Assembly (NCBI GenBank): GCA_014360155.1
Contig: JACIYB010000001.1
Span: 1 to 61,272, forward strand
Direction of reading: 5' to 3'
Length of the DNA: 61,272 bases
Source of the DNA: Syntrophomonadaceae bacterium
GTDB taxonomy: Bacteria > Bacillota > Syntrophomonadia > Syntrophomonadales > Syntrophomonadaceae
The translations under genes and the position numbers were made by a program. The notes beneath the pieces were generated by a model. It had not been told where the DNA came from and did no database searches. It saw nothing but the letters and a program-made list of their open reading frames with translations. Positions 679 to 56,545 of this stretch are shown one piece after another; the first letter of the stretch is position 1, and every line of letters begins with the position of its first letter.

Positions 679-705
679 ATGTTTTGCGGAGTTCGGAGTA
701 ATCTT

Positions 706-781: not shown

Positions 782-891
782 TTCTAAGAAGTTAGAAATC
801 GGACGTCAGAATATGGATATTCAGGCATAGAAATTAGTGAATTTGATTTATCAATTCTGACATCCTATATCAGGCATCCGATTTTAGTTAT

Positions 892-966: not shown

Positions 967-967
967 T

Positions 968-34741: not shown

Positions 34742-34756
34742 GAAGGAAGTGACAGG

Positions 34757-37666: not shown

Positions 37667-40398
37667 GCAGGAGGAAAGCTATGGTTTACCGCTATTCATC
37701 CAGATTAAAGCCACTGGACGAATCATTTCTTAATAAAAAATTAGAAGGAGCAAAAAGTTATGACCGGATAGCAGGTTATTTTAGTTCTTCTATTTTTGAA
37801 GTGGCCGGAGAAGCAATTGAAAAAATGGAGGGGAAAGTCAGAGTTGTTTGCAACTCAGACTTAGAGGTTGAGGACGTTAGAACGGCCAGCGCCGCCATGA
37901 ATGCCATGCGAAAAGAATGGTGTGCTGCCAAACCGGAAGAGTTATATCAAAATGCCCCTGTCAGATTAAAAAAGCTGTATAACTTAATTAAAGATGGCAA
38001 ATTGATGGTTAGGGTTATTCCTAACAAAGTTTTTGGGATGATACACGGTAAGGCAGGAGTTATAACCTTAATTGATGGCCAAAAAACGGCTTTTATTGGC
38101 AGCGCTAATGAAACTTCTTCGGCATGGAAGCTTAATTATGAATTGCTTTGGGAGGATGATTCTCAGGAAGCAATTAGTTGGGTGCAAGAAGAGTTTGACT
38201 ACTTTTGGAATAGTCCTTATGCTATTCCCCTTTCTGAGTTTGTAATAGAAGATATTAATAGAATTGCGGAAAGAAAGGTTATTTATTCAGTAGACGAGTG
38301 GAAAGAAGAAGCAAACCCGGGCTCTACTGTTGTTGAATCTCCGGTTTATAGACAAGAGTATGGTCTTTGGGAGCATCAGAAGTTTTTTGTAAACCTTGCC
38401 TTTACTGACCATAAAAAGCCCTATGGTGCAAGATATGTGTTGGCTGACATGGTAGGGCTGGGTAAAACCATCCAACTGGCTTTATCTGCCCAATTAATGG
38501 CACTTTATGGAGACAGGCCGATTCTTGTCATTGCACCTAAAACCCTTCTCTGGCAGTGGCAGGAAGAATTGAACTCGCTTTTGGACATGCCTTCAGCGGT
38601 ATGGAACGGTAAAGAATGGGTTGACGAAAATGGCATTAAATATCCCAGCAGCGGTGAGGGATCTATAAAAAAGTGCCCCAGAAGAGTGGGTATTATTTCA
38701 CAGGGTCTAATTACGGCCAGGTCTCCCCTGGTGGACCATCTGCTTACAATGGATTTTGAGTGTGTTATTGTGGATGAAGCACACAGGGCCAGAAGGAAAA
38801 ACCTTGGCCCTGATAAGGAAGATGAAAAGCCAAACCCCAATAATTTAATGAAATTTCTCCTGGAAATATCACCAAAAACAAAAAGCATGCTCCTGGCAAC
38901 AGCTACCCCTGTACAGCTTTATCCCATTGAGGCCTGGGATCTGTTATATATATTATCCCAAGCGAATAATAGTGTCCTTGGCAGCAATTTAAGCTTGTGG
39001 AGAAGAAAGCCAGGACAAGCGATTAGATTAATTATGGGAGTGGATAAATTAGACAGATTTAATCCTGAAGTGATTGACTGGATAAGGAATCCTTTTCCGC
39101 CGGCGTCAGAGAACCCTTTAACCTTTGGTAGGATAAGGAATCGTCTAAATATGAAAGAGGAAGATTTTCTTATCAGGCCGGAACAAATAGACTCTCTCCA
39201 AAATACCCCGGACGGACGGAGAATAGGCAGGATAATAGATGATGACTTTATGGCCAGGCATAATCCTTTCATCAGGCACATTGTGAGAAGAACTCGTGAT
39301 TTTCTGGAGAACACTATCAATGAAGAGACGGGGGAGCCTTATCTGAAAAGGATTAAAGTAAACCTGATGGGAGAAGCGGAAGATGAGGCCATTATACTGC
39401 CTCCCTATTTACAAGAAGCTTATGAACATGCAGAAAAGTTTTGTGAGCTCCTTCAAAAGCGTGTCAAGGGAGGCGGGTTTTTAAAAACCTTACTCTTAAA
39501 GCGCGTTGGCAGCACCATGGAAGCAGGCAAAAACACAGCCCAGAAAATGCTTACCAACTGGGGTGGCCTCGGCGATGAAGAAGACTTTGAAGATGAGGAT
39601 ATTTCAGAAGAACTCGTCAGTCAAAGTGAAATAAAAAATATCACAGAGGAAGAAAAAGCATGCTTGCAGCGATTTATACATTCGTTGGAAGCCAACAAGG
39701 GAAAAGATCCCAAATATCAGCTTGTTTTAAGCCTTCTTAAAGATAACAAGTGGATGGAGCTGGGTTGTATTATTTTTTCACAGTATTATGACTCAGCCTA
39801 TTGGGTGGCCGAAAACTTGTCCAGGGAATTAAAAACAGAAAAAATTGGTATCTATGCCGGGGGAGATAAGTCAGGAGTTTTATATGATGGTATTTATAAA
39901 CGTAAGTCTAAAGAAGAAATAAAGCAGATGATAAAAAGGAGAGAACTAAAGATTTTGGTTGGAACAGATGCAGCCAGTGAGGGCCTTAACCTTCAAACCC
40001 TGGGGACCCTCATAAATCTGGACCTACCATGGAACCCTACCCGTCTTGAACAAAGAAAAGGAAGGATACAGAGAATTGGACAGGTTTATGACGAAGTATA
40101 TGTTTACAATATGCGGTATAAAGGATCCGTAGAAGACAGGGTGCATTCTTTACTTTCAGCCAGGCTAGAAAACATTTATGGTTTATTTGGGCAAATTCCA
40201 GATGTGCTGCAGGATGTATGGGTGGAAGTTGCTTTAAATAATATAGCTGAAGCGAAAAGAAAGATTGATGAAGTGCCAAAGCAGCATCCCTTTGAACTCC
40301 GTTATCACGTCCATGTGGGAAAGGTTAACTGGGAAAACTGTGCAGTGGTATTAGATGCAAAAGAAAAAAGAAAACATTTGATGAATGGCTGGAAGTAA
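37663..40398 (+). CDS. PLD-nuclease / SNF2-family helicase fusion protein
   Basis: ATGA overlap with the methyltransferase stop. Single HKD motif HGKAGV...GSANETS. Helicase motifs DMVGLGKT, IVDEAHRARR, LLATATPVQ and QRKGRIQRIGQ. Confidence 0.88.
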   Translation: MSRRKAMVYRYSSRLKPLDESFLNKKLEGAKSYDRIAGYFSSSIFEVAGEAIEKMEGKVRVVCNSDLEVEDVRTASAAMNAMRKEWCAAKPEELYQNAPVRLKKLYNLIKDGKLMVRVIPNKVFGMIHGKAGVITLIDGQKTAFIGSANETSSAWKLNYELLWEDDSQEAISWVQEEFDYFWNSPYAIPLSEFVIEDINRIAERKVIYSVDEWKEEANPGSTVVESPVYRQEYGLWEHQKFFVNLAFTDHKKPYGARYVLADMVGLGKTIQLALSAQLMALYGDRPILVIAPKTLLWQWQEELNSLLDMPSAVWNGKEWVDENGIKYPSSGEGSIKKCPRRVGIISQGLITARSPLVDHLLTMDFECVIVDEAHRARRKNLGPDKEDEKPNPNNLMKFLLEISPKTKSMLLATATPVQLYPIEAWDLLYILSQANNSVLGSNLSLWRRKPGQAIRLIMGVDKLDRFNPEVIDWIRNPFPPASENPLTFGRIRNRLNMKEEDFLIRPEQIDSLQNTPDGRRIGRIIDDDFMARHNPFIRHIVRRTRDFLENTINEETGEPYLKRIKVNLMGEAEDEAIILPPYLQEAYEHAEKFCELLQKRVKGGGFLKTLLLKRVGSTMEAGKNTAQKMLTNWGGLGDEEDFEDEDISEELVSQSEIKNITEEEKACLQRFIHSLEANKGKDPKYQLVLSLLKDNKWMELGCIIFSQYYDSAYWVAENLSRELKTEKIGIYAGGDKSGVLYDGIYKRKSKEEIKQMIKRRELKILVGTDAASEGLNLQTLGTLINLDLPWNPTRLEQRKGRIQRIGQVYDEVYVYNMRYKGSVEDRVHSLLSARLENIYGLFGQIPDVLQDVWVEVALNNIAEAKRKIDEVPKQHPFELRYHVHVGKVNWENCAVVLDAKEKRKHLMNGWK

Positions 40399-40419
40399 AA
40401 AACTGAGTGGTGTTTAAAA

Positions 40420-41715
40420 ATGAAAGATAAAGAATATATTGTTTTTGATCCAAGAGACTTTATCCGTAGCCCCTTTTGGACATGCCCTAAATGTGGTGCT
40501 ACAGATAGTTTTGGTGTATTAATGATCTGCGCAAATCATTATGTAAGAAGATGTAAAAACTGCAGATTTGATGATTCATTCTCTCTTCCAAAACTAAACA
40601 AAAAAATATTATATATTGATCAAATGGCTATTAGTAACATGATGAAAGCTTTGAATCCAGCAACTAAAGCCTACCAAAAAGGAACTGTTGATAATTTCTG
40701 GTTTGAAATGTTCGAGAAGCTTGATACATTAGTAAAGTTACAGGTTTTAATTTGTCCAGACTCATGTTCTCATATGGATGAATCAATCTTGTCTGCTTTT
40801 TACCAGCCATTGAAGCGTATGTATGAATTACTTTCTCATGGTGTCTCTTTTTATGACAGTCAAACGATAAAGCGCTTTCAGATTATAAATCATGTAGAAA
40901 AATACATCTCTGGCAAGTCAGCTGAAATCGATTTAGATATTCACAGAATAGTACATGGAAATATTAATGACTGGCAGGATAGATTTATTATATCTGTTTC
41001 ATCAAATATAGGTGAAGAGTTGATAGATGAGATTCGAGAGCATAGAGAAAAAGCGCATGAACAGTTTGTGGAAATTGCTAAATACTGGCAATCATGCAAA
41101 GACAAAAGTTTTCAGGATTTCTTTGAGACAGAAGCTAAGGCTTTTGGTGAAACTAATATTCAGGTTTATTTAAGATTCAACGAAAGAATAGCTTATCTTG
41201 CAAAAAACCCAGATAAAATTATGTCACCTTTAGAGTTTATGCCTCCTGATGCGGTTGTTTTAATAAATGAAATAGCATCACATTTTATAAAAGCAGGCGT
41301 CTCGGAGTCGGAGGGGTTAGTTCAGGCTTTTAAATACTTAACATCCCCTAGTATGAGAGATATCCCTTTCATAAAAATATCTTCAATGCTATATGCAGCC
41401 CTGGCTAGAAAATATGTATCAGGTCGAAAAAAACCGCCTAATCAAGGGATGTTTACAGATATTGAAACAATTTCCCTACTGCTACCTTATTGTGATGCGA
41501 TGTTTATAGATAACGAATGCCATGGATACTTACAAGAAAACCCACTAAAAGAAAGCATTAATTATAATGCAAGAACATTTTGTCAAAATACTAAAAAGGA
41601 GTTTTTCGAATATCTTGATAAAATTTTTTCAGATATATCGCCTGAACACATAAGTAAGGTCCAAGAGGTATATGGAAGCGATTGGCCCCAACCATATACA
41701 AGTCTTTATAAATAA
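40420..41715 (+). CDS. Hypothetical protein with an N-terminal CxxC...CxxC Zn ribbon (431 aa)
   Basis: CPKCGATDSFGVLMICANHYVRRCKNCRF. Acidic motifs ILYIDQMAISN, HMDES, FTDIETIS and MFIDNE are weakly PIN-like. It starts only 21 nt after the helicase gene. Confidence 0.6.
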   Translation: MKDKEYIVFDPRDFIRSPFWTCPKCGATDSFGVLMICANHYVRRCKNCRFDDSFSLPKLNKKILYIDQMAISNMMKALNPATKAYQKGTVDNFWFEMFEKLDTLVKLQVLICPDSCSHMDESILSAFYQPLKRMYELLSHGVSFYDSQTIKRFQIINHVEKYISGKSAEIDLDIHRIVHGNINDWQDRFIISVSSNIGEELIDEIREHREKAHEQFVEIAKYWQSCKDKSFQDFFETEAKAFGETNIQVYLRFNERIAYLAKNPDKIMSPLEFMPPDAVVLINEIASHFIKAGVSESEGLVQAFKYLTSPSMRDIPFIKISSMLYAALARKYVSGRKKPPNQGMFTDIETISLLLPYCDAMFIDNECHGYLQENPLKESINYNARTFCQNTKKEFFEYLDKIFSDISPEHISKVQEVYGSDWPQPYTSLYK

Positions 41716-41779
41716 TATTGGCATAGAAGACGGAGTCTAGTTTTATAAGTCCAACTTTTGGTAAGCAAGGAGGTGCAAC

Positions 41780-42772
41780 GTGTACAATATCAAGGGTAAA
41801 AAAGCAGAAAAAATTGAAGCTGTAACTTTTTCTGATTTAGGCATGCAGGAAAACGATATAGAAGAAATTCTTAGATGTAGCGTTGACATGTTATGTGACG
41901 ATGAAGACTCAATGCTTATAGTTGGGCGCCAGGTTAAGAATGACAAGTTGGGCAGAAGCGACCTTACAGCAGTGGATAATAATGGGAACATTGTATTAAT
42001 TGAAATTAAAAGGGACCGCAAGGATATTGAAGGCAGGAAAGAGTCCTTTGAATTTCAAGCTATACGTTACGCTGCAAGCTATGCCACCATTGAGAGCCCG
42101 GATGATCTTGTAAAAAAAGTCTATGCGCCTTACATTGAAAAATATCGCAGCGAATTTGAACTAGGAGAGCTTACTTCTTATGAGCTTGGAATTAGGAAAT
42201 TAAATGAGTTTTTAAGGATTAATGAAGCTGAAAAGAACTTCAATAAAAAACAAAAGATAATATTGGTTGCCTCGGATTTTGATGAGCAGACACTTTCAGC
42301 GGTGGCCTGGCTAAATAGCAATAATGTGGATATGAGCTGCTTCAAGCTTACTCCATATAAGCTCCAGGAAAATGTTTATTTGCATACAGAAAAACTGCTT
42401 CCGGTAACTAAATGCGATGACTACTATGTAAACCTTATGGACAAAACCCTACCCGCTAATGTAAAGAAAAATAAAGATATTACCAGGCGCTCACTTCCTA
42501 AAATTGATGCAATGCTCGATTGGGGAGTTGTAAAAGAAGGTGATACTATTATTGCAAAAGGCAGAGAAGAGGAAGGAACCCTTCTCGCTAATGGAAATGT
42601 CATGGCTGATGGCAAAGAAAAATCCATGCAAGTGTGGTTAAAGGAAATTTATGGCTGGTCCAGTGTTCAAACTTATGTGTTTGCAGTTCATAAAGAAAGC
42701 GGAAAAACACTATCGCAGATACGAGAAGAATATATGGAGCAGCAGGCAAAGAAAACTGCAGAAGAAGCGTAA
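41780..42772 (+). CDS. NucS-like PD-(D/E)xK endonuclease-domain protein (330 aa)
   Basis: GTG start after an AAGGAGG RBS. Motif RSDLTAVDNNGNIVLIEIKRD...FQAIRYAASY. The C-terminal ~90 aa domain is unassigned. Confidence 0.65.
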   Translation: MYNIKGKKAEKIEAVTFSDLGMQENDIEEILRCSVDMLCDDEDSMLIVGRQVKNDKLGRSDLTAVDNNGNIVLIEIKRDRKDIEGRKESFEFQAIRYAASYATIESPDDLVKKVYAPYIEKYRSEFELGELTSYELGIRKLNEFLRINEAEKNFNKKQKIILVASDFDEQTLSAVAWLNSNNVDMSCFKLTPYKLQENVYLHTEKLLPVTKCDDYYVNLMDKTLPANVKKNKDITRRSLPKIDAMLDWGVVKEGDTIIAKGREEEGTLLANGNVMADGKEKSMQVWLKEIYGWSSVQTYVFAVHKESGKTLSQIREEYMEQQAKKTAEEA

Positions 42773-42803
42773 AAGTGCATGGTGATGAAAAGAGGGATCA
42801 ATT

Positions 42804-43560
42804 GTGGCGCTGTATGAAAAATCAGTCAAACTCCTTTTCCGAGATATGATAAAAGACCTCGCTATTCAAAAAGGAGAAGTTATAGAGAGAGACAAAATAA
42901 ATTCCTGGTTCAAGACAAAATATCCACTCATAAAGCCTGGCACTATCTCAGCTCATATGCTTAAGTTGTCAACTAATGCCCCAAGCCGAATACATTACAA
43001 CGTTGATTCAAATGGTAAAAAAGATGATCTTTTTTTTTCAGATTGATAGCAAAAAGTTCCGACTCTACGACCAATCTTCTGATCCAGACCCTATCTATTT
43101 CAGACAAAAAGAAGATGAGAAAATAACGCCAGAACATGAAGGATCAGAAGAAGAGAATGGGAATGAATTCGCCTATGAGAAAGATCTTCAGAATTTCTTG
43201 GCAAAGAATCTATCCCTTATTGAGCCGGGTCTATCATTATATTTGGAAGAGGAAATCAGCGGTATCGAATTCCCGGTAGGGAACCGATTCATCGATATAT
43301 TGGCAATCGATAGTAATAATAATTATGTGGTTATAGAACTTAAGGTATCGCGTGGATACGACAGGGTTGTAGGCCAAATCCTTCGCTATATGGCATGGAT
43401 CAGAAAAAACCATGCGGAAGAAAGTCAGAAAGTACGGGGCATAATAATCGCCCGCGAGATTTCGGATGATCTTCTGCTAGCATGTTCTGAGATAAATAAT
43501 GTTGAGTTGTACGAATATAACTTATCGATAACGTTGAATAAAATAAAGAAAAATAGGTAA
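42804..43560 (+). pseudogene. NucS-like PD-(D/E)xK endonuclease-domain protein split by a +1 frameshift in a T9 tract
   Basis: ORFs 42804-43046 and 42976-43560 join seamlessly if one T is removed (…KKDDLFFQIDSKKFRLYD…). The C-terminal part has RFIDILAIDSNNNYVVIELKVSRGYDRVVGQILRYMAW. Confidence 0.75.
43030..43038 (+). repeat. T9 homopolymer at the frameshift site
   Basis: gatc-ttttttttt-cagattg. Nine consecutive T. Confidence 0.95.
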
Positions 43561-43644
43561 CTACCGCATCAACAGCACCAAGATATTATTAGCAAAAGCC
43601 GGCAGAAAATATTGGTCATGTAACTTTGACGGGGAGTTGAGAAG

Positions 43645-44871
43645 ATGGGCCGTATTCAACTGGGCTGGATCGATTATTCTTCGGAACACCGCAATAAAGT
43701 GATGGCGGTGTTGCATGCACTGACAGCTCCGGGGGCTGTCGACGAGCTTGGCATCGGCCAGATTCGAGACGGCTTTGCAAACCTGCTTTTCCCAGGTACA
43801 TCCACCATTCAGACCCGGGCAAAATATTTTTTTATTGTACCTTACCTATTAATGGAGTTGGAGCAGCAGCGCCACCTGACACCAAAATCTTTCCTTCAGA
43901 AGTTAAATGAGATGGAACTGGACATCATTGAACCTTTAAAAAAGAATGGAGAAAAGGGTGTAATTGGCGAAACCGCAGGGAGGGGATTGAAAAGAAAGCC
44001 CTCCAGTATCTATTGGAGTGGACTGCGCACCCTGGGCATGTTTCGCTACCCCCCTTTTTCCCTGGAGGATTATGCCCGGGCGACATGTGCTGTAAGTCAG
44101 GAACTGGCAACCCAACGGGCCATGGGGCGACGAACGGACGATGAGCAGGCACAGGATGATCCGGATGCTTACCAGAGTCCGGTGCCGGGCGGCTTTTGGC
44201 GCTGTCTTCCACCGCCGGAAGACTGGCGTAAGCAGATTACTATCCAATTGTCGGCTGAAGAAGCGGCTTATTTAAAAGATCGCATAAATAAAGCCCCTTT
44301 AACTCGAAATTCTCTCTTTGCCTATCTTGTAAACAAGGACCTGGAAACAATCCAGGCGATTCAAGATATTGAAGCCCTGGGGCAGCTATTTGATTTGCCG
44401 GACTATATCCGTTCGGTCTATGATATGGCCATGCGGTTCTCTGATTTTATTTATGGAGCAACTTTGCGCTACAATGTGATTCTTTCGGGCGGTGAAAACA
44501 AAAGGGCGCTGGAGGGCTGGGAAACCTGGTGCCAGTCAGCCTTTGCAACTCGTTCTTTTGCCGGGTATGACCCTAATGAAGCGATAGATTACCTGAGGGT
44601 TAATAATTATCGATTGCGCAGATTCCTACGGCAGTGGCATGAAAGCTACATGTCAGGTGATATCAATGCGGTGGATGAGTTGATCGTGCAGCGGGAAATT
44701 GAAATCAAGTCGCGTCAACGGGCCAAACTGCGCAACCCGTCTATGTATGTGTACCGGGAGGGAGATGGCATGCGGGGCGGCAAGTTGGATTACCGCTATA
44801 GTAATGCCAGGGTCATTCTCATAGATATTTTTAATGGATTGGAGAAAGGCCATGCTGAGACCGTCCAGTGA
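43645..44871 (+). CDS. Hypothetical protein (408 aa), first gene of the PLD-helicase operon; possibly DUF6361-like
   Basis: N-terminus LGWIDYSSEHRNKVMAVLHAL...VDELGIGQIRDGFANLLFPGTSTIQTRAKYFFIVPYL. I recognised no catalytic motif, and the family name is recollection only. Confidence 0.6.
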   Translation: MGRIQLGWIDYSSEHRNKVMAVLHALTAPGAVDELGIGQIRDGFANLLFPGTSTIQTRAKYFFIVPYLLMELEQQRHLTPKSFLQKLNEMELDIIEPLKKNGEKGVIGETAGRGLKRKPSSIYWSGLRTLGMFRYPPFSLEDYARATCAVSQELATQRAMGRRTDDEQAQDDPDAYQSPVPGGFWRCLPPPEDWRKQITIQLSAEEAAYLKDRINKAPLTRNSLFAYLVNKDLETIQAIQDIEALGQLFDLPDYIRSVYDMAMRFSDFIYGATLRYNVILSGGENKRALEGWETWCQSAFATRSFAGYDPNEAIDYLRVNNYRLRRFLRQWHESYMSGDINAVDELIVQREIEIKSRQRAKLRNPSMYVYREGDGMRGGKLDYRYSNARVILIDIFNGLEKGHAETVQ

Positions 44872-46639
44872 CAGATTAAATTACGGCGATTTACTCATAC
44901 CGCCGCCGGAATACCAGGCAGATTTCGCTTTAGGCACCACCTACAGCCTGGACTTGGAGGCACTGGTGGGTTTGCCCCTGGCTCTGTTTTTGTCTGAAGA
45001 AATGAACAAGAGCCTGTTAAATAATCCGATTGTAGCTCTGGAGGGTTTGCGCCGCAGTGCGGAGCGGTTTGCCGTCTTGTGCGAAGGCGGCCAAATTAAA
45101 GTGCCGCAAAACCAAAATACGGTGTTTTCTCTTTTGGAGGATAGTGTCTTTGAAGTAGTGCTGCCGAATAATTGGTCATTTCATCCGAAAATCTGGCTGA
45201 TCCGCTATCAGGGCGAGAGGAAACAGCCCCTCTACCGCCTTTTGGTGTTGAGCCGGAACCTGACCTTTGACAGAAGCTGGGACATGGCGGTATGTCTGGA
45301 AGGAAGATTAGCTGAAGGGGCAGAAGATGAAGCAGCAGCAAAACAGAATATGCCGCTCATAGCTTTTGTAGAATATCTGCAGGCAAGAGTAAAGAACCGC
45401 AAGAAGCGGGGTCAGATCTCAAAAACGCTGGAAGAACTGAAACAGGTCCGGTTCGAAACCAATGATCCTCATTATTCTGATTTCTCTTTTCATCCCTTGG
45501 GGATTCCGGGACATACAAAGCAGCCGAGTGAACTTTTTGATACATACAAGGACTTACTTGTTATCTCACCTTTTCTCAGCAAGGGCATGGTAGAAAGATT
45601 TAAGAAGCTGGCTCTCTCCGATTCTACCCGCACGTTAATAACGCGACGGACAGAAATTGCAAAACTGTCTCAGGAGATGCTGGAAGCATTTGATGTGTAT
45701 GGCCTGAAAGAAATGGTGGTAGAGGGAGAAGAGGGGTTGAGCGGTGACGATTTAAATGATGAAGCTTATCAAAACCAGGATATTCATGCCAAGTTTTACG
45801 CCCGTTCCAAGTACAGTCAGCACTCATTTTTCGTTGGTTCTGCCAACTGTTCTGAAAGTGCTTTTAGCGGTAACGTGGAATTCTTGTTGCAGCTGCGCTA
45901 CCGCAAACATGGATTTAAGATCCAACACCTGTTGGACGACTTATTCGGCAAAGATGACAAGGACAATCCTTTTGAACTGATTAAGGAGTTACCGGAAGTT
46001 GATACGCCTGATACTACTGCTTCTGATTTGCTGGAAAAAGCCATTAAGCAGCTATGCCGCACCCGTTCCAAGGCAAGGGTAATAAAAGAAGGCCAGCAAT
46101 ATCGAGTAAAGATTGAGTTTGCAAAAATTCCGGAAGAGGTGGATTTAACCATTGCCTCTATAACAGGGATACAGCCGGTTAAGCTGGAACCAGTAACAAT
46201 ACTACCCCTCCTGCCATTAGAGCAACTAAGTGAGTTTTACCAGGTGACCGCCTGCAAAGAAGAAACTGCTGTACGACGGATAATCAAGATCAAAACCACC
46301 GGTATCCCAGAGGAGCGGGATAAAGCAGTTTTTAGGTCAATCATCCGGGACCGAGATACATTTATGAAGTACGTGGCTTTTTTGCTGTCCGATAGCCTGC
46401 TTCTTTCCAGCCTGGAGCAAATGGACGCCGAACGGTTGGGTAAAGGCAAATGGAATGTTAGCTGGTTGCAGGCGCCAGTCTTATATGAGAATATGCTGAA
46501 AACTGTGGCTAGGGAACCGGAACGCTTAAAAGAGATTGAACGGGTGATAAAGTTAATCGATGATCAGGAGATAATTCCGGAGGATTTTAATGAACTGTAT
46601 CAAATTTTCAGCCAGGCAGCAAAGAAGGTGAAAAGATGA
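44852..46639 (+). CDS. Phospholipase D-family nuclease with two HKD motifs
   Basis: HKD 1 is SFHPKIWLIRY...LSRNLT. HKD 2 is IHAKFYARS...FVGSANCSESAF. The ATG at 44852 follows a GGAGAAAGG RBS and overlaps the upstream gene by 20 nt (the track ORF starts at 44834). Confidence 0.85.
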   Translation: MLRPSSDRLNYGDLLIPPPEYQADFALGTTYSLDLEALVGLPLALFLSEEMNKSLLNNPIVALEGLRRSAERFAVLCEGGQIKVPQNQNTVFSLLEDSVFEVVLPNNWSFHPKIWLIRYQGERKQPLYRLLVLSRNLTFDRSWDMAVCLEGRLAEGAEDEAAAKQNMPLIAFVEYLQARVKNRKKRGQISKTLEELKQVRFETNDPHYSDFSFHPLGIPGHTKQPSELFDTYKDLLVISPFLSKGMVERFKKLALSDSTRTLITRRTEIAKLSQEMLEAFDVYGLKEMVVEGEEGLSGDDLNDEAYQNQDIHAKFYARSKYSQHSFFVGSANCSESAFSGNVEFLLQLRYRKHGFKIQHLLDDLFGKDDKDNPFELIKELPEVDTPDTTASDLLEKAIKQLCRTRSKARVIKEGQQYRVKIEFAKIPEEVDLTIASITGIQPVKLEPVTILPLLPLEQLSEFYQVTACKEETAVRRIIKIKTTGIPEERDKAVFRSIIRDRDTFMKYVAFLLSDSLLLSSLEQMDAERLGKGKWNVSWLQAPVLYENMLKTVAREPERLKEIERVIKLIDDQEIIPEDFNELYQIFSQAAKKVKR

Positions 46640-49600
46640 TTGATCTGGCAGCAAAAGAAAAAGAAATACTGTCGGGCTTGAAAGATTTCCAACTGGCAAC
46701 GGTAAACAGAGTAGATGATTTATTCCGAAACGGGTACCACCGTGTCCTGGTAGCGGATGAAGTAGGCCTGGGAAAAACACTGGTGGCCAAAGGTGTTATT
46801 GCGAAAATGTCCTGCTTTCATCAGAAAAGATCTATGAAAGACTTGTTTAAAGTAGTTTATGTTTGTTCCAATCAGAGCATTGCCGGGCAAAATCTAAAAA
46901 AATTAAAGGTGCATCCGGGGGTCAAAGTGGACGGACTTTCAGATACCCGCTTGTCGATGCAGCATCTGAAGATCTATGAACAGATGCATGATCCTACCAT
47001 CCGGGAAGGTTTTGTGCAGCTTATTCCATTAACACCAGGCACTTCTTTTACCATGACGGGCGGCTGTGGCAGTGTGCTGGAGCGAGCACTTATTTATGCC
47101 ATTTTCCGACACATTTATTTCTTTAAGCCATATTTACCACAGCTGGAGGAATTAATGACATCCTATGCGATGAAGAGCTGGCCGTACTGGTCAAACAGAT
47201 TCGAACAGCTTGTGCTAGAGGTGGATCAAAAAAGTGACGGAGCTTATTTACACCATATACTGAAAAAAGTAAGTGACCGCCTGGAGGCAGACCCTGAATT
47301 GTTAAGGTTGGCAGAAAAAGTATTTGCTTCTATAGAGACAATCGGCTACCTCAAAACTCAAAAAGCCAACTACCTGATTTCGCAGTTTCGTAAAATGATG
47401 GCTGAAATCAGCGTGGAGATGATGGACGCCGATCTGGTCATTATGGACGAGTTCCAGCGTTTTCCAGAACTCATAAAACTGGACGAAGATAACGAAACGG
47501 CCATGCTGGCCCGTCGGTTTTTCAGTCCAGAAATAGAGAAAAAACATCACCCTTACATTCTTCTGTTGTCGGCGACTCCCTATAAATTGTATTCCACCCT
47601 GGAGGAAATTCGGGAAAACCGCAAGGATGAACATTATGAAGAATTCATGCAGGTGATGCACTTTCTTTTTGAACACCAGGCGGATCTGCGCCAGAAATTT
47701 AACATTACCTGGAAAAACTACTCCTTGACATTAAATGAAGCTTCTTATCGCGATACGGCGCTTATAGTAGCACGCAAGCGAGAGGCGGAAGAATGTCTGT
47801 ATAATGGGGTCTGTCGGACGGAGCGCATGAAGGTGCCAGGAGCGTCAGACTTAATTGATGTAGAAACCAGAAATGGATCGCTAAAGGTACAGGAAGATGA
47901 TATTCTGTCCTTTGTGGAGATGGACAAAGCGCTTTCTGCGGTAGGACTAAGCGGGGCAGCTTCGGTAGAATACATTAAGTCTGCGCCCTTCATCATGTCG
48001 TTTATGCAGCACTACAAACTGAAACAGAAGCTGCAGGACAAACTGAAGTTAGAGCCAGAGAAGCTACCGCTGCTGAAAAGTCAGAGACTGTGGGTAAATC
48101 GCAAGAAGGTTGCTAGATACAAAGACTTAAAGGTGAACCATGCCCGCTATAATAAGCTGCGGGAAGTGGCACTGCCACCTCAGGCAGAAAAACTGCTGTG
48201 GGTACCGCCCGCGCGGCCATATTACCCGATGGGTGGACCGTTTAAAAGCCAAGAAGGTTTTTCCAAGACACTGGTCTTTTCGGCATGGGAAATGGTTCCG
48301 CGGGCCATCGCCGCCTTATTATCCTATGAAGCAGAACGTTTGACTGTCGGTGAGCTGATTCGTAAAACACCAAAAACTGAGCATGAAAACCGCAGCTATT
48401 TTGCTAAAAATAGGTTTCCGGCGCCCAGGATTAAATTTGCCATGAAGAACAACGAACCGGAGAATATGAATCATTTGTGTCTATTGTATCCTTCTGCGAC
48501 CCTGGCTTCTCTTTATGACCCAATAGGTGGAATGAATCGCGGCTTAAACCTGCGACAAATTCGCACAGAAATTCGTCAAATAATTAAAGACCAACTGGAG
48601 CAGATGAAGTTTCATATACAGCGAGGAGATCAGCGGCAGGACGAACGGTGGTATTACATGGCGCCACTGCTGATGGACCAAAAACATCCAGGTATGGAGG
48701 CATGGTTTCAAAACCTGGTATTGCGAAACTTAACAGAAGGTTTGGACGGAGTGGACAGGTATGAGGATGATAAAGGGATTATTTCCAAACATCTGCAACA
48801 GCTGAAAAGATTGTATGATGAACCGGGATTGCTGAACATGGGTCGGATGCCCCGGGATCTCGAAGAGGTCCTTGTAAATATGGCTATTGCTTCCCCGGCA
48901 GTGTGTGCGCTGAGAATGCTGGATCCTGGTACCCCAGGCTCAGTGGATTTGGCATTGCAGCTGGCAAAAACCATAGTGGACCGTTTTAATACTCAAGAGG
49001 CCATTGCCATCGTGGATTTATCATATGGTAAGGCGGGTGAGGGGGTTCATTGGAAGAGTATCCTGCGGTATTGTATGGACGGAAATCTGCAAGCCGTCCT
49101 GGATGAATATGCCCATATGTTGTTAGAAGGATACGATTTCAGCCAATGGGAACGTAAAGAGCGCAATGTCGTGCTGATTAAAGATATGACCCGGACACTG
49201 AAGACCCATACAGCCAGTTACAGTGTGGATACCTACCAGCATTTCAGTGATAGTATTAAGGATCCTAAAAAAATAAGCCGTAAAGAGCGCTATATGCGCA
49301 TGCGTTCCAGTTATGCCGTCGGATTTTATGACACTAAAAGTGAAGGTAAAAGCGTTCAGCGGAAAGATAATATCCGATTAAGTTTTAATTCACCTTTCCG
49401 ACCTTTTGTCCTGGCCACTACCTCTATTGGACAAGAAGGGCTGGACTTTCATTACTATTGTCGTAATGTTGTTCATTGGAATCTGCCAGGAAACCCCATT
49501 GATTTGGAGCAGCGGGAAGGGCGTATCAACCGTTATAAATGCCATGCTATCCGACAGAATATCGCCTTTAAATATGGGAAAATGTTCTTCCAATCGGACA

Positions 49601-49956
49601 TTTGGCAGGAAATGTTTAACCAGGCCCAAAAACAAGAAAGCAACAGTGAGACCAGTGACCTTGTCCCTTTCTGGTGTTTGCCAGAGCAGGAGAATGAACC
49701 GCAGCCCTTCAAAATCCAGCGGGTTATTCCACTGTACCCCATGAGCAGAGACAGCGCTCGCTATGAACGCCTGATCAAGATTCTCTCATTATACCGGTTA
49801 AGCCTTGGACAGGCTAGACAGGAAGAACTAATTGATTACCTTTTCGAGAGAGGATTTGAGGAGATGGGGGAACTTTTTATGAATTTAAGTCCATACTTTA
49901 AGGAAGGACGAGGTAAACCTGGAATAGCAAAAGATAGCAAGGAGAACAAATCATGA
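46636..49956 (+). CDS. SNF2/DEAD-like superfamily 2 helicase (1106 aa)
   Basis: ATGA overlap with the PLD stop. Motif I VADEVGLGKT, II LVIMDEFQRF, III LLLSATPYK, V TTSIGQEGLDF, VI EQREGRINRY. Confidence 0.88.
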   Translation: MIDLAAKEKEILSGLKDFQLATVNRVDDLFRNGYHRVLVADEVGLGKTLVAKGVIAKMSCFHQKRSMKDLFKVVYVCSNQSIAGQNLKKLKVHPGVKVDGLSDTRLSMQHLKIYEQMHDPTIREGFVQLIPLTPGTSFTMTGGCGSVLERALIYAIFRHIYFFKPYLPQLEELMTSYAMKSWPYWSNRFEQLVLEVDQKSDGAYLHHILKKVSDRLEADPELLRLAEKVFASIETIGYLKTQKANYLISQFRKMMAEISVEMMDADLVIMDEFQRFPELIKLDEDNETAMLARRFFSPEIEKKHHPYILLLSATPYKLYSTLEEIRENRKDEHYEEFMQVMHFLFEHQADLRQKFNITWKNYSLTLNEASYRDTALIVARKREAEECLYNGVCRTERMKVPGASDLIDVETRNGSLKVQEDDILSFVEMDKALSAVGLSGAASVEYIKSAPFIMSFMQHYKLKQKLQDKLKLEPEKLPLLKSQRLWVNRKKVARYKDLKVNHARYNKLREVALPPQAEKLLWVPPARPYYPMGGPFKSQEGFSKTLVFSAWEMVPRAIAALLSYEAERLTVGELIRKTPKTEHENRSYFAKNRFPAPRIKFAMKNNEPENMNHLCLLYPSATLASLYDPIGGMNRGLNLRQIRTEIRQIIKDQLEQMKFHIQRGDQRQDERWYYMAPLLMDQKHPGMEAWFQNLVLRNLTEGLDGVDRYEDDKGIISKHLQQLKRLYDEPGLLNMGRMPRDLEEVLVNMAIASPAVCALRMLDPGTPGSVDLALQLAKTIVDRFNTQEAIAIVDLSYGKAGEGVHWKSILRYCMDGNLQAVLDEYAHMLLEGYDFSQWERKERNVVLIKDMTRTLKTHTASYSVDTYQHFSDSIKDPKKISRKERYMRMRSSYAVGFYDTKSEGKSVQRKDNIRLSFNSPFRPFVLATTSIGQEGLDFHYYCRNVVHWNLPGNPIDLEQREGRINRYKCHAIRQNIAFKYGKMFFQSDIWQEMFNQAQKQESNSETSDLVPFWCLPEQENEPQPFKIQRVIPLYPMSRDSARYERLIKILSLYRLSLGQARQEELIDYLFERGFEEMGELFMNLSPYFKEGRGKPGIAKDSKENKS

Positions 49957-50687
49957 AGGCATATATTATTAAAATAGAACTTAAACACTCGGACCCCCTT
50001 ATCTGGCGAAAAGTCATCATGCCCGCAGGCGCCACATTTAACCGGCTCCATGATGTAATCCAGACGGTTACAAACTTTCAAAGCGGCTACCCTTCTAGGG
50101 ATTATCATCTCTATGAGTTTGACCTGAGGAAAGAAAATATCAGGGTAACCAATGATGAGGAAGCTTACCAGGAGCATCTCCATTTCAAAAAGAACAGAAA
50201 AGCATATGAGAAAAGGCTAAAAACAATACCTCCGGATCAGGCCGGGTTTGAAAAAGCCTATCAGGAAAGACTCCAAGTGACAGTGCGTAAACCCACGGGG
50301 CTAAAGATTGATGATTACCTCGAAAAGCATAAAGAGATTCTTTACCGTTATGATTTCGGGGATGGCTGGGAATTTATCATCAGGCTGGAAGATATAGTGG
50401 ATGATTATTATTTTGGTTACCCAACACTTCTTGATGGTGAGGAGACAGCACCCCCGGAAGATGTGGGCGGAATCTCAGGATTCTATGATTTTTTAAAAGC
50501 TTACCGGGACGAGAAGCATTCGGAACATGAAGAAATGAAGGCATGGGCGGACGGACAGGGGTTTAAAGAATATGATCCGGAATGGATTAACGAATTACTG
50601 AAGAACATTGCCTATAAAAAAACAGAGTGGGATAAAATTAATCACGACAGGTATATGATCATTGAGGACAAGTATCGGAAGAAATAA
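49953..50687 (+). CDS. Plasmid pRiA4b ORF-3-like (PRiA4_ORF3) family protein
   Basis: ATGA overlap with the helicase stop. Motifs IWRKVIMPAGATFNRLHDVIQ, YRYDFGDGWEF and PPEDVGGISGFYDFL. Confidence 0.8.
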   Translation: MKAYIIKIELKHSDPLIWRKVIMPAGATFNRLHDVIQTVTNFQSGYPSRDYHLYEFDLRKENIRVTNDEEAYQEHLHFKKNRKAYEKRLKTIPPDQAGFEKAYQERLQVTVRKPTGLKIDDYLEKHKEILYRYDFGDGWEFIIRLEDIVDDYYFGYPTLLDGEETAPPEDVGGISGFYDFLKAYRDEKHSEHEEMKAWADGQGFKEYDPEWINELLKNIAYKKTEWDKINHDRYMIIEDKYRKK

Positions 50688-50806
50688 CAAGGCGATCAGG
50701 GAATCAATTAATTTTTCGATAACGAAACAAGAATGGCAGGGTATTACGGAGCTGTTGACCTGAGGATAGCTGCAGAAGCATTACCTTGCAGAACAGGAGG
50801 TTTTCC

Positions 50807-51757
50807 ATGGAATTTGGCAAACTGACCAGAATTAATCCCAGAGATATCTGGTTTAAAGAGGCCACTGATTTTACACCATGGCTGGCTGACAATATTGGCG
50901 CCCTTGGTGAAGCGCTTGGGATGGAATTGGAACTTAGTCAACAAGAAGCCTCAGTTGGTGAATTTTCACTTGATCTTCTGGCTAAAGATTTAGGAACAGG
51001 CCATACAGTGATCATCGAAAATCAGCTAACCCAAACTGACCACGATCATTTAGGCAAGTTATTGACCTACGCCTCAGGCTTTAACGCGTCGGTTATTGTC
51101 TGGGTTGCAGAGGTAATTCGTGATGAGCACAGGCAAGCCCTTGAATGGCTAAATCAAAGGACAGATGAAGATACCCTATTCTTTGGAGTCGTTATAGAGA
51201 TAATCAAGATCGACAATTCAAAACCAGCCTATATCTTTAGGCCTGTTGTTTCCCCGAGTGAGTGGCAAAAATCCCGAAAACGCCAGGCCAAATCCACCAC
51301 CACTGCAAAGGGGGAGCAATATCGTCAATATTTCCAGGAACTAATTGATGAACTGCGGGTGAAGCACAAATATACCAATGCCAAAATAGGTCAGCCGCAG
51401 AATTGGTATGCTTTTTCATCAGGGATTACTGGGGTAACCTTTAATGCTGTTTTTGGCCAGGGTGGGAAGGTTCGCACAGAGCTCTATATTGATTTCGGTG
51501 ATGCCGAAAAAAACAAAATGCTCTTCGATCGCCTCAGCGAACAAAAAGAAGATATTCACCATAGTTTTGGGGGTGATCTCGAATGGGAACCGATGGACGA
51601 AAAAAGAGCTTGTCGTATAACTGCGTATAGAGATGGTTCAATTGATGCTACCAAGGAGGAGCTTGCTCAAATAAAAGATTGGCATATTGAAACTTTAGTT
51701 AAAATGAAGAAAACCCTGACCCCTTTCATAAAAAGAAACCTGAAACATCTTAGTTAG
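50807..51757 (+). CDS. DUF4268-type protein with an N-terminal PD-(D/E)xK-like nuclease domain
   Basis: ATG after an AGGAGG RBS. Motif FSLDLLAKDLGTGHTVIIENQLTQTDHDHLGKLLTYASG, with a C-terminal DUF4268-like half. Confidence 0.7.
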   Translation: MEFGKLTRINPRDIWFKEATDFTPWLADNIGALGEALGMELELSQQEASVGEFSLDLLAKDLGTGHTVIIENQLTQTDHDHLGKLLTYASGFNASVIVWVAEVIRDEHRQALEWLNQRTDEDTLFFGVVIEIIKIDNSKPAYIFRPVVSPSEWQKSRKRQAKSTTTAKGEQYRQYFQELIDELRVKHKYTNAKIGQPQNWYAFSSGITGVTFNAVFGQGGKVRTELYIDFGDAEKNKMLFDRLSEQKEDIHHSFGGDLEWEPMDEKRACRITAYRDGSIDATKEELAQIKDWHIETLVKMKKTLTPFIKRNLKHLS

Positions 51758-52899
51758 ATTCTGCTGAAAAAAGCAATTTCCTGATTACTCTTCTATAAGT
51801 CTTAGGTTGTTCCTTGATAACTTGATCATGGTTTGGCACTACCGCTTGGCTTAGATCAGCTTGGCTATTCGGTTCAGATTATATCCCCAGATGGCTCCGC
51901 CCACCCAGCGCCGGCAGCCGTTCAATCCCCGGTAAAGTGTCCGGTCGAGTCCATAGCGCCTCTTCAGCTCACTGATTGTTCCTTCTTGACCGGCCCGCCA
52001 GCGCTGAAGCCGGCGGAACCATGGCCGGCGCTCGTGTTCAGCACGCCGGCGGCTGCGTTTGCCTTTAAAAGGAAGGCTGACTTTTTGCACACCCATTTCC
52101 TTTAAAGCGCGTTCGTTGGCCGGAGCCCAGAATCCCCGGTCGGTAGCAGTGGCTTGAGGCACTCGCCCGGTGCGCTGAATGTGTTCCCTGACTCCGGGGA
52201 CGAGTAGTTCTTTATCCGGAGGGTTGCCTATCATCACGTCATACTCGGTCACCAGCCGCTCTGCACTTTCCGTCAGCCGTACTTTGTTTCTGTTCTTTAA
52301 GAGCCTTTCTTCCTGAGCTTTGCAGACGAGGTGGGCGTTTAACTCGGCCATGTGGTCACTGCCGCTGGCATCCAGCCGCTGGCGGATCTTGGACAGACTG
52401 CTGGGATGGGGCACCGGCTTGTTCCAGGGAATCCGAAAGATTTGGCGCCAGCTGATCCGGTCGCTGACCAGGGCGCAAAGGTGCCGGTCGCTGAGCCCGT
52501 ACTGGTACTTGAGTGCTGTCATGCGCAAGTAGGTTTCCGCCGGCACGGAGGGCCGTCCCAAACACTGATGGTATTTGTCCCGAAACGGTGTGAAGAAACG
52601 CTCATCATCCAGCCAGGCGTCCAGTTTGGCCAGATCTTCCGGAAGCTCAAGCACCTCGGGCGGCAATAGTAAATCCACCAGTGATATTTGTCGGCTCTCT
52701 TCCTGCCGGATTCGCAGTATTATTTTTCACCCCCGCAGGAAACTGGGCTTTTGCGTCGAACCATGATCAACATAGGGATTTCCTCCTGTGCGTTTGTTTT
52801 GTTTTCTTCTCCTTAAACAATTCGCCACAGGAGTCGAAATCCCTTGATTTATATGCATTTTCAAGGAACTTTTTGGCTGACTTTTTCAGCAGAATCTAG
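51754..52899 (-). mobile_element. IS5-family-like insertion sequence, probably an internally deleted derivative
   Basis: Terminal inverted repeats attctgctgaaaaa (51758-51771) and tttttcagcagaat (52882-52895), flanked by TTAG on the left and CTAG on the right. Confidence 0.75.
51851..52678 (-). CDS. IS5-like transposase (275 aa; DUF772-type N-terminus, C-terminal DDE part, apparently no first catalytic Asp region)
   Basis: N-terminus GRPSVPAETYLRMTALKYQYGLSDRHL, then ATATDRGF and RAGQEGTISELKRRYGLDRTLYRGL. It looks short for this architecture. Confidence 0.7.
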   Translation of the reverse strand: MDLLLPPEVLELPEDLAKLDAWLDDERFFTPFRDKYHQCLGRPSVPAETYLRMTALKYQYGLSDRHLCALVSDRISWRQIFRIPWNKPVPHPSSLSKIRQRLDASGSDHMAELNAHLVCKAQEERLLKNRNKVRLTESAERLVTEYDVMIGNPPDKELLVPGVREHIQRTGRVPQATATDRGFWAPANERALKEMGVQKVSLPFKGKRSRRRAEHERRPWFRRLQRWRAGQEGTISELKRRYGLDRTLYRGLNGCRRWVGGAIWGYNLNRIAKLI

Positions 52900-53424
52900 C
52901 TACAGTTAAGGATATATTCACCAAGGAAATAACCGGCTGGGCTACAGCCAATAACATGAAAACAGAACTTTGCCTTAGAGCCTTAAAAAACGCTGTAATA
53001 AGGCATAGACCGCCCAAGGGACTCATTCATCATTCTGATCGAGGTGTCCAATATTGCAGCAAAGAATATCAAGCTTTACTAAAGAAAAATAAGATGGTTT
53101 GCAGTATGAGCCGCAAAGGTAACTGTTATGATAACGCTTGTGCGGAAACATTCTTCAGCACCATCAAATGCGAAATGCTTTATCACAAAAAATATAAAAC
53201 AAGAGAAGAAGCCCGTCGGGACATATTCTGGTATATAGAAGTCTTCTACAACCGTAAGAGAAGGCACCAGTCCCTGGGGTATCTGACTCCGGCAGAATTT
53301 AAGCGTAATTACATAGCCAAGTTAGTAGCCTAGAGCCAGAATTAGGAATACGAAAAACTAAGCAATTGTATGATTTAAGCTAAAAACCTAACTCTGGAGT
53401 GTCCGTTTTATCGTGAAAACCTCA
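52899..53424 (+). pseudogene. IS3-family OrfB (rve) 3' fragment with the right inverted repeat
   Basis: The frame reads VKDIFTKEITGWATANNMKTELCLRAL...HSDRGVQYCS...NCYDNACAETFF...RRHQSLGYLTPAEF. It starts abruptly at the IS5-like boundary and ends ...cgtgaaaacctca (53424). Confidence 0.8.
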
Positions 53425-53539
53425 ATGTTGATCGCAGTGATGAATTTAAAAAAGCTGCCCAAATTCGTAAGCATATTATATATTGCTTTTATATTATTTT
53501 ATTTTATAATAATTTATAGATAAATGGAGCATAATATAT

Positions 53540-54281: not shown

Positions 54282-54436
54282 CAAATATAACTAAGTGGAG
54301 TTGGGTCGTAGAGAGTGATAAACTAATGACAGTTATGAACAATTGGAAAAAGAAGCTCATTTTTTTGCTGCATGTGTATTAGCTCCTCATATTGTATTAT
54401 ATAAACTCGTTGACGATGAAAGTGAAGACTATGGTT

Positions 54437-54676
54437 AATAACCCCTCCCTTCGCCGATGCTCAGGAAGGGGCTTGCGCAAGCGAGCTTATTGACTAGGGG
54501 GCTTGCTGTAAGCGAGCAGCAGTTATCCAGGTCATGGCACCCCGGGGTGTTCCGCAAGCTCCAGGCAGCTGCCGCCAGTGGTTAAAAGTCCTGAAGGGGT
54601 AGGGACGGTGCTGCTGGCACGAAAAGTCTGGGTAACAACCCCGATGCGGCCCTAACTCTGAAAGGAGGTACACTCT
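54437..54676 (+). ncRNA. Putative IscB-associated omega RNA scaffold, copy 1 (includes the IS200/IS605-type left-end hairpin)
   Basis: A ~240-nt GC-rich, stem-rich non-coding stretch immediately upstream of the IscB PLMP N-terminus. It is repeated at 56546, with compensatory base changes between copies. Confidence 0.6.
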
Positions 54677-55140: not shown

Positions 55141-56529
55141 ATGAAACCAAAACTTATTAGCACTGAAGAAGCTGTTCACCTGGATCGTAAGCAGGTAAAA
55201 TCTCTCTACAAACAATACATCAACCCCAGTTTTGCGACGATGTTGAGCCTCTTAAATTTCGACAAAAGGTTCGTCCACGCTGAAGGAATCTATGTCTGGG
55301 ATGACCAGGGAAAACGCTATTTGGACTTTCTTGGAGGCTACGGTGCCCTCAACTTTGGTCATAACCATCCGTGTATTGTTTCCATCGTTGAACAGGTAGC
55401 AAAATGGCCCAACTTGCTTCAGGCTTCCTTGAGTACCTTCAGTGCTGTTTTAGCTTACAACCTCGCCCAGCTAACCCCTGGCAAAATTGAGCGGAGTTTT
55501 TTTTGCAATAGTGGAGCCGAAGCTGTTGAAGGGGCATTGAAGCTGGCAAGAGCAGCAACAAAAAAGAAAAGAATTATTTACTGTGAAGGAGCCTTTCACG
55601 GTAAAACCTTTGGGGCCCTATCTGTAACTGGGCGCAGTAAGTATCAAGAACCCTTCAAGCCATTGCTTTTAGACTGTGAGCCTGTGCCCTATGGAGATGC
55701 TGGAGCCCTCGAAAAAAAACTCCAAGATGGTGACGTGGCTGCGTTTATCCTGGAACCAATTCAAGGTGAGGGAGGCATCAAAATTCCTCCCCAGGGTTAT
55801 TTACAAAAAGCAAGAGAATTGACTAGGAAGTATGATGCCCTGCTGATTATAGATGAAATCCAGACAGGCTTTGGGAGAACAGGGAAAACCTTTGCCTGTG
55901 AACACGAAGGTGTAGAACCAGATGTCATGTGCCTGGGTAAGTCATTAGGAGGGGGTATAATGCCCCTCGCAACTTTTACCACTACTTCAGATATCTGGGA
56001 TAAAGCTTACGGTGGTTTTGAGCGCTGTCTTCTCCATACATCTACATTTGGGGGCAACACGAGGGCTGCTGCAGCAGGTGTTGCTACTCTTCAGGTGCTT
56101 ATTGAGGAGAACCTTGCGAACAAGGCATGGAAAAATGGACAATATTTTCTTACAAAGCTCCAGGAGCTTCAAGGAAAATACCCTGGATTTATCAAAGAAG
56201 TGAGGGGCCGCGGTCTCCTGATTGGAATTGAGTTTAACCAAATTGCAGGTGATTTCTGGGATAAGCTGACAGCGGGGAAATTGAACAGAATTGCCGAGGA
56301 ATATCTGGCTGCCTTTGTTGCTGCAGAGCTATTGAATAAATACCAGATCATCACTGCCTATACCTTGAATAATCCCAATGTTATTCGCTTGGAGCCACCA
56401 CTGATTGTGATGAGAGAACAGCTTGATCAGGTCGTGGTAGCACTAGAAGATATTTTCAAGAAATACAAAAGTCTTTGGAAACTTGTTTTGGGAAGCAGTA
56501 AATATTTTCTGTCTTCGTTCAAACAGTAG
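55141..56529 (+). CDS. Class-III PLP-dependent aminotransferase (acetylornithine/putrescine/GABA aminotransferase-like)
   Basis: Motifs YLDFLGGYGALNFGHNHP, FFCNSGAEAVEGALKLAR, LIIDEIQTGFGRTG and the Schiff-base region CLGKSLGGG. Confidence 0.9.
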   Translation: MKPKLISTEEAVHLDRKQVKSLYKQYINPSFATMLSLLNFDKRFVHAEGIYVWDDQGKRYLDFLGGYGALNFGHNHPCIVSIVEQVAKWPNLLQASLSTFSAVLAYNLAQLTPGKIERSFFCNSGAEAVEGALKLARAATKKKRIIYCEGAFHGKTFGALSVTGRSKYQEPFKPLLLDCEPVPYGDAGALEKKLQDGDVAAFILEPIQGEGGIKIPPQGYLQKARELTRKYDALLIIDEIQTGFGRTGKTFACEHEGVEPDVMCLGKSLGGGIMPLATFTTTSDIWDKAYGGFERCLLHTSTFGGNTRAAAAGVATLQVLIEENLANKAWKNGQYFLTKLQELQGKYPGFIKEVRGRGLLIGIEFNQIAGDFWDKLTAGKLNRIAEEYLAAFVAAELLNKYQIITAYTLNNPNVIRLEPPLIVMREQLDQVVVALEDIFKKYKSLWKLVLGSSKYFLSSFKQ

Positions 56530-56545
56530 TGGTATTATTTGCGTC

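Follow-up and report, generated by a model that had tools for sequence, protein, structure and literature searches.

The stretch of DNA analysed here, referred to as the window, comprises 61,272 nucleotides (nt) from a Syntrophomonadaceae bacterium (GCA_014360155.1, JACIYB010000001.1) and carries at 43645-50687, on the plus strand, an operon of four co-oriented open reading frames (ORFs) encoding proteins of 408, 595, 1106 and 244 amino acids (aa). An initial annotation, made from the sequence alone, had described a first protein without a recognisable catalytic motif, a phospholipase D (PLD) nuclease, a helicase and a PRiA4_ORF3 protein (hereafter PRiA4), had treated the four genes as one co-expressed operon and had tentatively likened the first three to the Azaca defence system. 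The four ORFs, at the coordinates given there, and the three overlapping junctions between them were all read directly in the sequence (Table 1). It is very probable that 43645-49956 constitutes a canonical zacA-zacB-zacC operon and that the PRiA4_ORF3 gene behind it is a stand-alone gene, co-transcribed with the operon and not a component of the system.

The 408-aa protein matched the PADLOC profile for ZacA (E=1e-102) with residues 5-400 on profile positions 4-395 (392 of 396 positions), the 595-aa protein matched that for ZacB (E=4.7e-162) with residues 1-593 on positions 1-584 of 586, and the 1106-aa protein matched that for ZacC (E=0) with residues 7-1087 on positions 5-1017 of 1019. The Pfam matches were to DUF6361 for ZacA (1.5e-36), to PLDc_2 and RE_NgoFVII for ZacB (both weak) and to ResIII and Helicase_C for ZacC. 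Because all three Azaca profiles are matched over their full length, the block is Azaca, and the tentative likening to an Azaca-type layout proved correct, the same genes standing in the same order in other genomes. For the first three genes, this analysis establishes what they encode, how they are arranged and how well they are conserved.

Homologues of ZacA are numerous (2315 found), and the window protein is ~45-50% identical to the Bacillaceae ZacA proteins in our sample. The strongly patterned N-terminus that the initial annotation had picked out is indeed where the family is most strongly conserved, with invariant residues D33, E34, G36, G38, R41 and D42 followed by T57, R58, A59, K60, Y61 and F62. 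An AlphaFold2 model of ZacA is all-alpha (pLDDT 83), and a fold search against the PDB returned nothing below E=0.9 and thus no solved structural relative, so that an essential third subunit of Azaca, although modelled with confidence, is structurally uncharted. In ZacB the expected pair of active-site motifs was found with a qualification: two HxK...SxN half-sites (H111/K113 and H312/K314) are present, without variation among 64 orthologues, but both lack the Asp of the canonical motif HxK(x4)D, with R and S as its replacements and no Asp at the +4 position after Lys. The helicase motifs of ZacC were as first described, with motifs I (GLGKT), II (DEFQ), III (SAT) and VI (QREGRINR) invariant or nearly so in 58 orthologues, so that ZacC has the Walker A/B motifs expected of the Azaca helicase.

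The combination of a PLD nuclease with an SNF2-like helicase also occurs in other systems, and the block could in principle be a fragment of DISARM, be of the Dpd/Hma type or belong to a methyltransferase system that lies upstream. ZacC does give weak matches to DrmD, DrmA, DpdE and BrxH (E = 1e-9 to 1e-15), and a DUF1156 methyltransferase system with a PLD-helicase of its own ends 3.2 kb before the Azaca block. However, the matches to DrmD, DrmA, DpdE, BrxH and also ZorD cover short stretches of generic helicase core, mostly in the C-terminal lobe (~60-100 residues for the first four, with ~50-70 in the partial DrmD and DrmA matches at E = 1e-12 to 1e-15), compared with an end-to-end match to the ZacC profile at E=0; moreover, the upstream system does not travel with the Azaca block in three related loci (L001, L005 and L002). 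No match to the DUF1998/DrmB profile of the DISARM core was detected in the operon or in the flanking genes scanned (31050-43557 and 50786-52675), and DrmMI was absent. The full-length ZacA, ZacB and ZacC matches effectively refute a non-Azaca origin, to which we attach next to no credence.

For a census of related loci an alignment of ZacA was built and one genome per species was scanned, giving 281 relatives, and the 80 best-matching loci were retrieved; 58 of these hold a complete Azaca locus and ~55 have readable sequence after ZacC. In every locus long enough to tell, the three genes are adjacent, co-oriented and in the order ZacA-ZacB-ZacC (58/58 complete loci), and ZacB and ZacC overlap in 56 of the 58 (4 nt in 33 loci, 1 nt in 10). 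Overlapping junctions are therefore a general trait of Azaca and not peculiar to the window; the stoichiometric co-expression that had been deduced from them reads too much into the overlap. In these neighbourhoods of the 408-aa protein's homologues, PLD nuclease and helicase co-occur with overlapping junctions, and PRiA4_ORF3 followed ZacC in only 1 of ~55 loci.

In the window, ZacA and ZacB overlap by 20 nt, with the ATG of zacB at 44852 preceded by GGAGAAAGG and the ZacA TGA at 44869-44871; the longest possible zacB frame begins at 44834, and a GGAG ribosome-binding site stands 7 nt before ATG 44852. The ZacB/ZacC and ZacC/PRiA4 junctions are both ATGA overlaps, at 46636-46639 and 49953-49956, the latter with AAGGAG in front. 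Comparison of ~58 ZacC C-termini revealed that the protein normally stops 0-12 residues past a conserved NLSPY(F/Y)K motif. The tail in the sub-clade of the window runs 16 aa past NLSPYFK, the longest of those compared; this extension, restricted to the sub-clade, crosses the ribosome-binding site of PRiA4 and ends at the TGA of the ATGA. Like Azaca in general, the locus has the three families in their usual order on one strand, with overlapping junctions and no methyltransferase in the operon, the last as had been stated from the outset; it differs by an additional NucS_C-like gene upstream, PRiA4_ORF3 on the zacC stop and the ~16-aa extension of the ZacC tail.

Azaca was reportedly first described by Millman et al. 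in 2022, from Bacillus massilioglaciei. More recent work found that Azaca gives >1e6-fold protection against phage T4, that BmAzaca requires all three proteins, the ZacABC complex cleaving phage T4 DNA, and that purified BmAzaca degrades T4 DNA preferentially (bioRxiv 10.1101/2025.07.10.664194). Cleavage was abolished by mutation of the nuclease (PLD) site or of the ZacC Walker A motif and persisted when conserved ZacA residues were mutated, and the authors suggested glucosyl-hydroxymethylcytosine as a possible recognition cue (bioRxiv 10.1101/2025.07.10.664194).

By analogy with the Bacillus system, ZacA, ZacB and ZacC from the window would assemble into a single complex, as complex formation is described in the literature, in which ZacC, as a superfamily 2 ATPase/helicase, would engage or translocate on DNA at the expense of ATP, ZacB, with its two HxK sites, would cut it, and the all-alpha DUF6361 protein ZacA would serve as an obligatory non-catalytic subunit. 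Self DNA would presumably be spared by recognition of a feature of phage DNA, perhaps hypermodified cytosine, so that Azaca would act as a helicase-driven, modification-sensing restriction complex of a type IV-like kind; a methyltransferase would not be needed, because hypermodified phage DNA is what would be sensed. Complex formation, cleavage activity and phage protection at this locus are predictions from homology to Bacillus Azaca, as are the putative way in which DNA is recognised and the presumed phage targets here.

The arrangement resembles that of type IV enzymes, Hachiman, Gabija and the PLD/SNF2 genes of DISARM, where a nuclease effector is also joined to an NTPase or helicase with no cognate methyltransferase, and the preference of Azaca for hypermodified T4 DNA is a further likeness to the type IV enzymes (bioRxiv 10.1101/2025.07.10.664194). 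In contrast, ZacA is without counterpart in any of these, and the locus falls outside their families. What the locus adds is an Azaca orthologue of divergent sequence, from a lineage of uncultured anaerobic Bacillota and located inside a dense defence island rich in insertion sequences (IS), an addition of little weight beyond annotation.

The distribution of PRiA4 sets it apart from the three zac genes. Among the loci readable after ZacC, it followed ZacC only in L001, which is 92% identical in DNA to the window over 42771-50687 and unrelated beyond. L005, 91% identical over 42656-49990, has lost PRiA4 apart from ~40 nt of its 5′ end, with the ATG changed to ATA. Since L005 retains this remnant, PRiA4 was present in the ancestor of the sub-clade and was later lost while zacABC was kept. 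In a metagenome scan with the PRiA4 protein as query, 1 of 80 loci had ZacC upstream (L098), and there Azaca is decayed, with the C-terminus of ZacA, residues 1-261 of ZacB joined to residues 879-1106 of ZacC, and residues 1-73 of PRiA4. The sub-clade of the window that carries a trace of PRiA4 thus consists of L001, the decayed L098 and the remnant in L005, at ~90% DNA identity, and co-occurrence of PRiA4 with ZacABC in independent lineages was not found among the Azaca loci examined.

Elsewhere, homologues with 68-86% identity occur as solitary genes. Nine mutually unrelated neighbourhoods contained neither a recurrent partner nor ZacC: GmrSD/type I R genes; PLD-helicase-DUF3427 with NUDIX and RelBE; TRAP and ABC transporters; metabolic genes of an ordinary kind, in Planococcus and in Syntrophocurvum; PIN-PhdYeFM with polysaccharide genes; AbiH/TnpB/SocA; a triple-integrase island; and a variable region of Bacillus infantis. 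The view of the four genes as one system is not upheld by this pattern, in which PRiA4 follows ZacC only in near-identical relatives and its homologues are solitary elsewhere; what lies in the window is an already named system next to a variable and dispensable PRiA4_ORF3 gene. We also considered PRiA4 as a discrete mobile cassette and rejected this, as the similarity between copies ends at the stop codon and there are no common flanks or inverted repeats. In another locus, L083, a full-length 244-aa homologue lies near a second PRiA4_ORF3 ORF that is fragmentary (77 aa) and has behind it an ORF of 40 aa with a SEC-C motif; the two small ORFs together look like the remnant of a PRiA4_ORF3 and SEC-C fusion protein.

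The PRiA4 protein is a member of Pfam PF07929 (7.5e-49; 166.2 bits against a gathering cut-off of 26.6) and belongs to a tight clade of 243-245-aa Bacillota proteins with 68-91% identity (704 matches). No PADLOC profile was matched. The fold search, which was empty for the 408-aa protein, here led to MM3350 (PDB 2I1S) only: this structural-genomics protein without assigned function was the sole match both by sequence (2.5e-21) and in a Foldseek comparison of folds (E=1.7e-12; TM 0.76 relative to the target; model pLDDT 82). PRiA4 shares sequence family and fold with MM3350/PF07929, and differs by a helical insertion of ~55 residues (~residues 60-116) and a C-terminal extension of ~30 residues. 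To our knowledge, no member of the PF07929 family has a known function, and the literature searched held no link between pRiA4b ORF-3 proteins and phage defence, which supports the remark in the initial annotation that coupling of such a gene to the helicase had not been seen described.

Selection on PRiA4 was similar in linked and unlinked copies. The ratio of nonsynonymous to synonymous substitution rates (dN/dS) was 0.08 for the window copy compared with that of L001; comparison with copies unlinked to Azaca gave 0.06-0.125, and the zac genes gave 0.10-0.14. As purifying selection is alike in both settings, the constraint on PRiA4 is independent of Azaca. The ATGA overlap with zacC can be accounted for by a sequence of events in which a free-standing PRiA4 with its own ribosome-binding site would have landed just after zacC in one young sub-clade, and the zacC stop would then have been lost, so that the frame extended across the PRiA4 ribosome-binding site as far as the present overlap; this is the simplest reading of the junction and probably how it arose.

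Several observations weigh against PRiA4 as a mere neighbour and would fit a four-component variant of Azaca, in which PRiA4_ORF3 was recruited in this sub-clade as a ZacABC accessory or regulator (a sensor, an infection-released inhibitor or a specificity factor) coupled to ZacC. The gene is intact, has a good ribosome-binding site of its own and overlaps zacC by ATGA; the ZacC/PRiA4 junction occurs in the window, L001 and L098, although its retention in at least three relatives suits a useful local accessory and a neutral passenger alike; purifying selection was kept while the gene was linked to zacC (dN/dS 0.08 against L001); and several other Azaca sub-clades have a gene of their own overlapping the ZacC stop, making an accessory slot conceivable. 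In addition, the loci compared were the 80 nearest of 281 genome matches and so represent the closer Azaca clades, and the mechanism at this locus is carried over by homology from Bacillus Azaca. Nevertheless, L005 lost PRiA4 and kept zacABC, PRiA4 does not follow ZacC in any other sampled Azaca locus, the 68-86%-identical homologues that are solitary elsewhere and under the same selection (dN/dS 0.06-0.125) argue for a function independent of Azaca, and BmAzaca works with three proteins (bioRxiv 10.1101/2025.07.10.664194). We therefore hold a four-component system to be quite improbable.

The position after ZacC is nonetheless not empty in other Azaca loci. It holds at least five unrelated genes, each limited to a narrow sub-clade and some overlapping the ZacC stop (Table 1), with HNH and PDC-S14 genes, among others, in further loci. 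The 221-aa protein was tried as a divergent PRiA4_ORF3 and rejected (hhalign probability 0.2%). The position 3′ of zacC may be a variable accessory slot. There is a slim chance that PRiA4_ORF3 is a captured, translationally coupled fourth component of Azaca (sensor, brake or specificity factor) and that, more generally, the post-zacC position is a swappable slot; if any post-zacC gene proved functional, this would provide an initial clue to what the very widespread PF07929 family does.

PRiA4_ORF3 could instead be an independent single-gene module for defence, anti-defence or maintenance of a mobile element, lying beside Azaca only as fellow cargo of the island. In keeping with this, close homologues are found near GmrSD/type I R genes, PLD-helicase-DUF3427 with RelBE, AbiH/TnpB/SocA, PIN-PhdYeFM and integrases, the window copy sits in an IS-rich defence island, and more distant members of the family are frequent on plasmids (769 records), occur in a few phages and are reported as cargo of ISAzba1-type transposons (PMC3942029). 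Other homologues, however, lie amid ordinary metabolic genes in complete genomes, and the protein has no PADLOC match, no catalytic motif and an uncharacterised sole structural match. The phage collection gave four matches, all distant, so there is no case for a phage-borne anti-defence gene. A defence-related role of this kind seems rather unlikely; it is compatible with PRiA4 as a stand-alone gene beside a three-gene Azaca operon and differs only by giving PRiA4 that role.

Table 1. Features of the Azaca operon, its surroundings in the window and related loci.
Feature	Locus	Position	Strand	Description
zacA	window	43645..44871	+	408-aa DUF6361 protein, non-enzymatic Azaca subunit
zacB	window	44852..46639	+	595-aa PLD-family nuclease, two HxK...SxN half-sites
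zacC	window	46636..49956	+	1106-aa superfamily 2 (SF2) helicase/ATPase
PRiA4_ORF3 (MM3350-like) gene	window	49953..50687	+	244 aa, sub-clade-specific neighbour, very probably outside the Azaca core
NucS_C / PDC-S02-like PD-(D/E)xK nuclease gene	window	42804..43560	+	split in two frames; co-inherited with the Azaca block
DUF499 ATPase / DUF3780 / DUF1156 methyltransferase / PLD-SNF2 helicase	window	31050-40398	+	1040 aa / 189 aa / 969 aa / 911 aa
431-aa ORF	window	40420-41715		between the two defence systems
PDC-S11-type candidate defence gene	window	41780-42772		nuclease and RAMA domain, upstream of the Azaca block
PDC-S11/DUF4268 candidate defence gene	window	50786/50808-51757		downstream of the Azaca operon
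IS	window	51751-52902		~1152 bp; transposase on the minus strand
HEARO RNA	window	54434-54656	+	Rfam RF02033
Aminotransferase gene	window	55141-56529		between the two HEARO RNAs
HEARO RNA	window	56543-56766	+	Rfam RF02033
Four-tRNA cluster	window	471-1040		Rfam tRNA
Gene after ZacC	L055	15970-16635		221-aa protein, 4-nt overlap with ZacC, no Pfam or PADLOC match
Gene after ZacC	L057	15967-16632		221-aa protein, as in L055
Gene after ZacC	L058	6347-7012		221-aa protein, as in L055
Gene after ZacC	L059	16278-17345		355-aa protein of unassigned family, overlapping the ZacC stop, no PADLOC match
Gene after ZacC	L063	6469-7536		355-aa protein, as in L059
Gene after ZacC	L061	16272-17417		ADP-ribosylglycohydrolase, 20-nt overlap with ZacC, no PADLOC match
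Genes after ZacC	L067, L071			181-aa and 292-aa proteins, 1-nt overlap with ZacC
Decayed Azaca with PRiA4	L098	4361-6219		fragments of ZacA, ZacB, ZacC and PRiA4
Second PRiA4_ORF3 ORF and SEC-C motif ORF	L083	6094-6480		fragmentary, near a full-length homologue

The DNA shared with L001, L005 and L002 begins at 42656-42771, upstream of the NucS_C-like gene (Pfam NucS_C 2e-12; PADLOC PDC-S02). In the window this gene comprises two overlapping frames (80 aa and 194 aa), where L001, L002 and L005 have one uninterrupted ORF (244-251 aa), and is either a pseudogene or affected by a sequencing indel. It was rejected as a general Azaca partner, as homologues occurred in L001, L002, L005 and L008 only, of 80 loci. 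In L001 the block has IS3-family (rve-domain) transposase genes on both sides, one of them directly after PRiA4. Because the flanks differ between the window, L001 and L005 and IS3-family genes bracket the L001 block, the Azaca block is a mobile module.

Base composition is less informative. ZacABC has a GC content of 0.463 and PRiA4 one of 0.418; the window as a whole averages 0.429, the 12 kb upstream lie at 0.36-0.40 and the downstream side at 0.43-0.44. The claim that the block is more GC-rich than its neighbours is only partly borne out: ZacABC is near the window average, PRiA4 reaches only 0.418, and the AT-rich part is the upstream island. As proof of separate acquisition, GC content is a weak argument, and mobility is instead shown by the comparison of flanks. 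A scan of 40000-53500 found promoter-like sites no more frequently than expected from shuffled sequence, none of them informative; terminator-like sites were in slight excess (18 against 11.9 ± 3.3 in shuffled sequence), again with none informative.

The Azaca locus is one cargo item of an IS-rich defence island. Upstream, the genes at 31050-40398 match PADLOC profiles over their full length and in order (E = 1e-199, 2e-49, 1e-286 and 1e-246; GC 0.40) and form a complete DNA-modification-type defence system. The 431-aa ORF that follows it has neither a Pfam nor a PADLOC match and lies where the window is richest in AT (GC ~0.36). Candidate defence genes of the PDC-S11 type flank the Azaca operon on either side; the downstream one (E=8e-115) most likely starts at ATG 50808, behind AGGAGG. 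Its stop codon abuts the left repeat of the IS, which has 21-bp terminal inverted repeats (95% complementary), a DDE transposase (DUF772/DDE_Tnp_1) and a GC content of 0.58, far above that of the window.

Further downstream, two full-length HEARO RNAs (114 and 121 bits) bracket the aminotransferase gene, and no large HNH/IscB-type ORF beside them was evident in the ORF list. The tRNA cluster (67-73 bits) lies at the start of the window.

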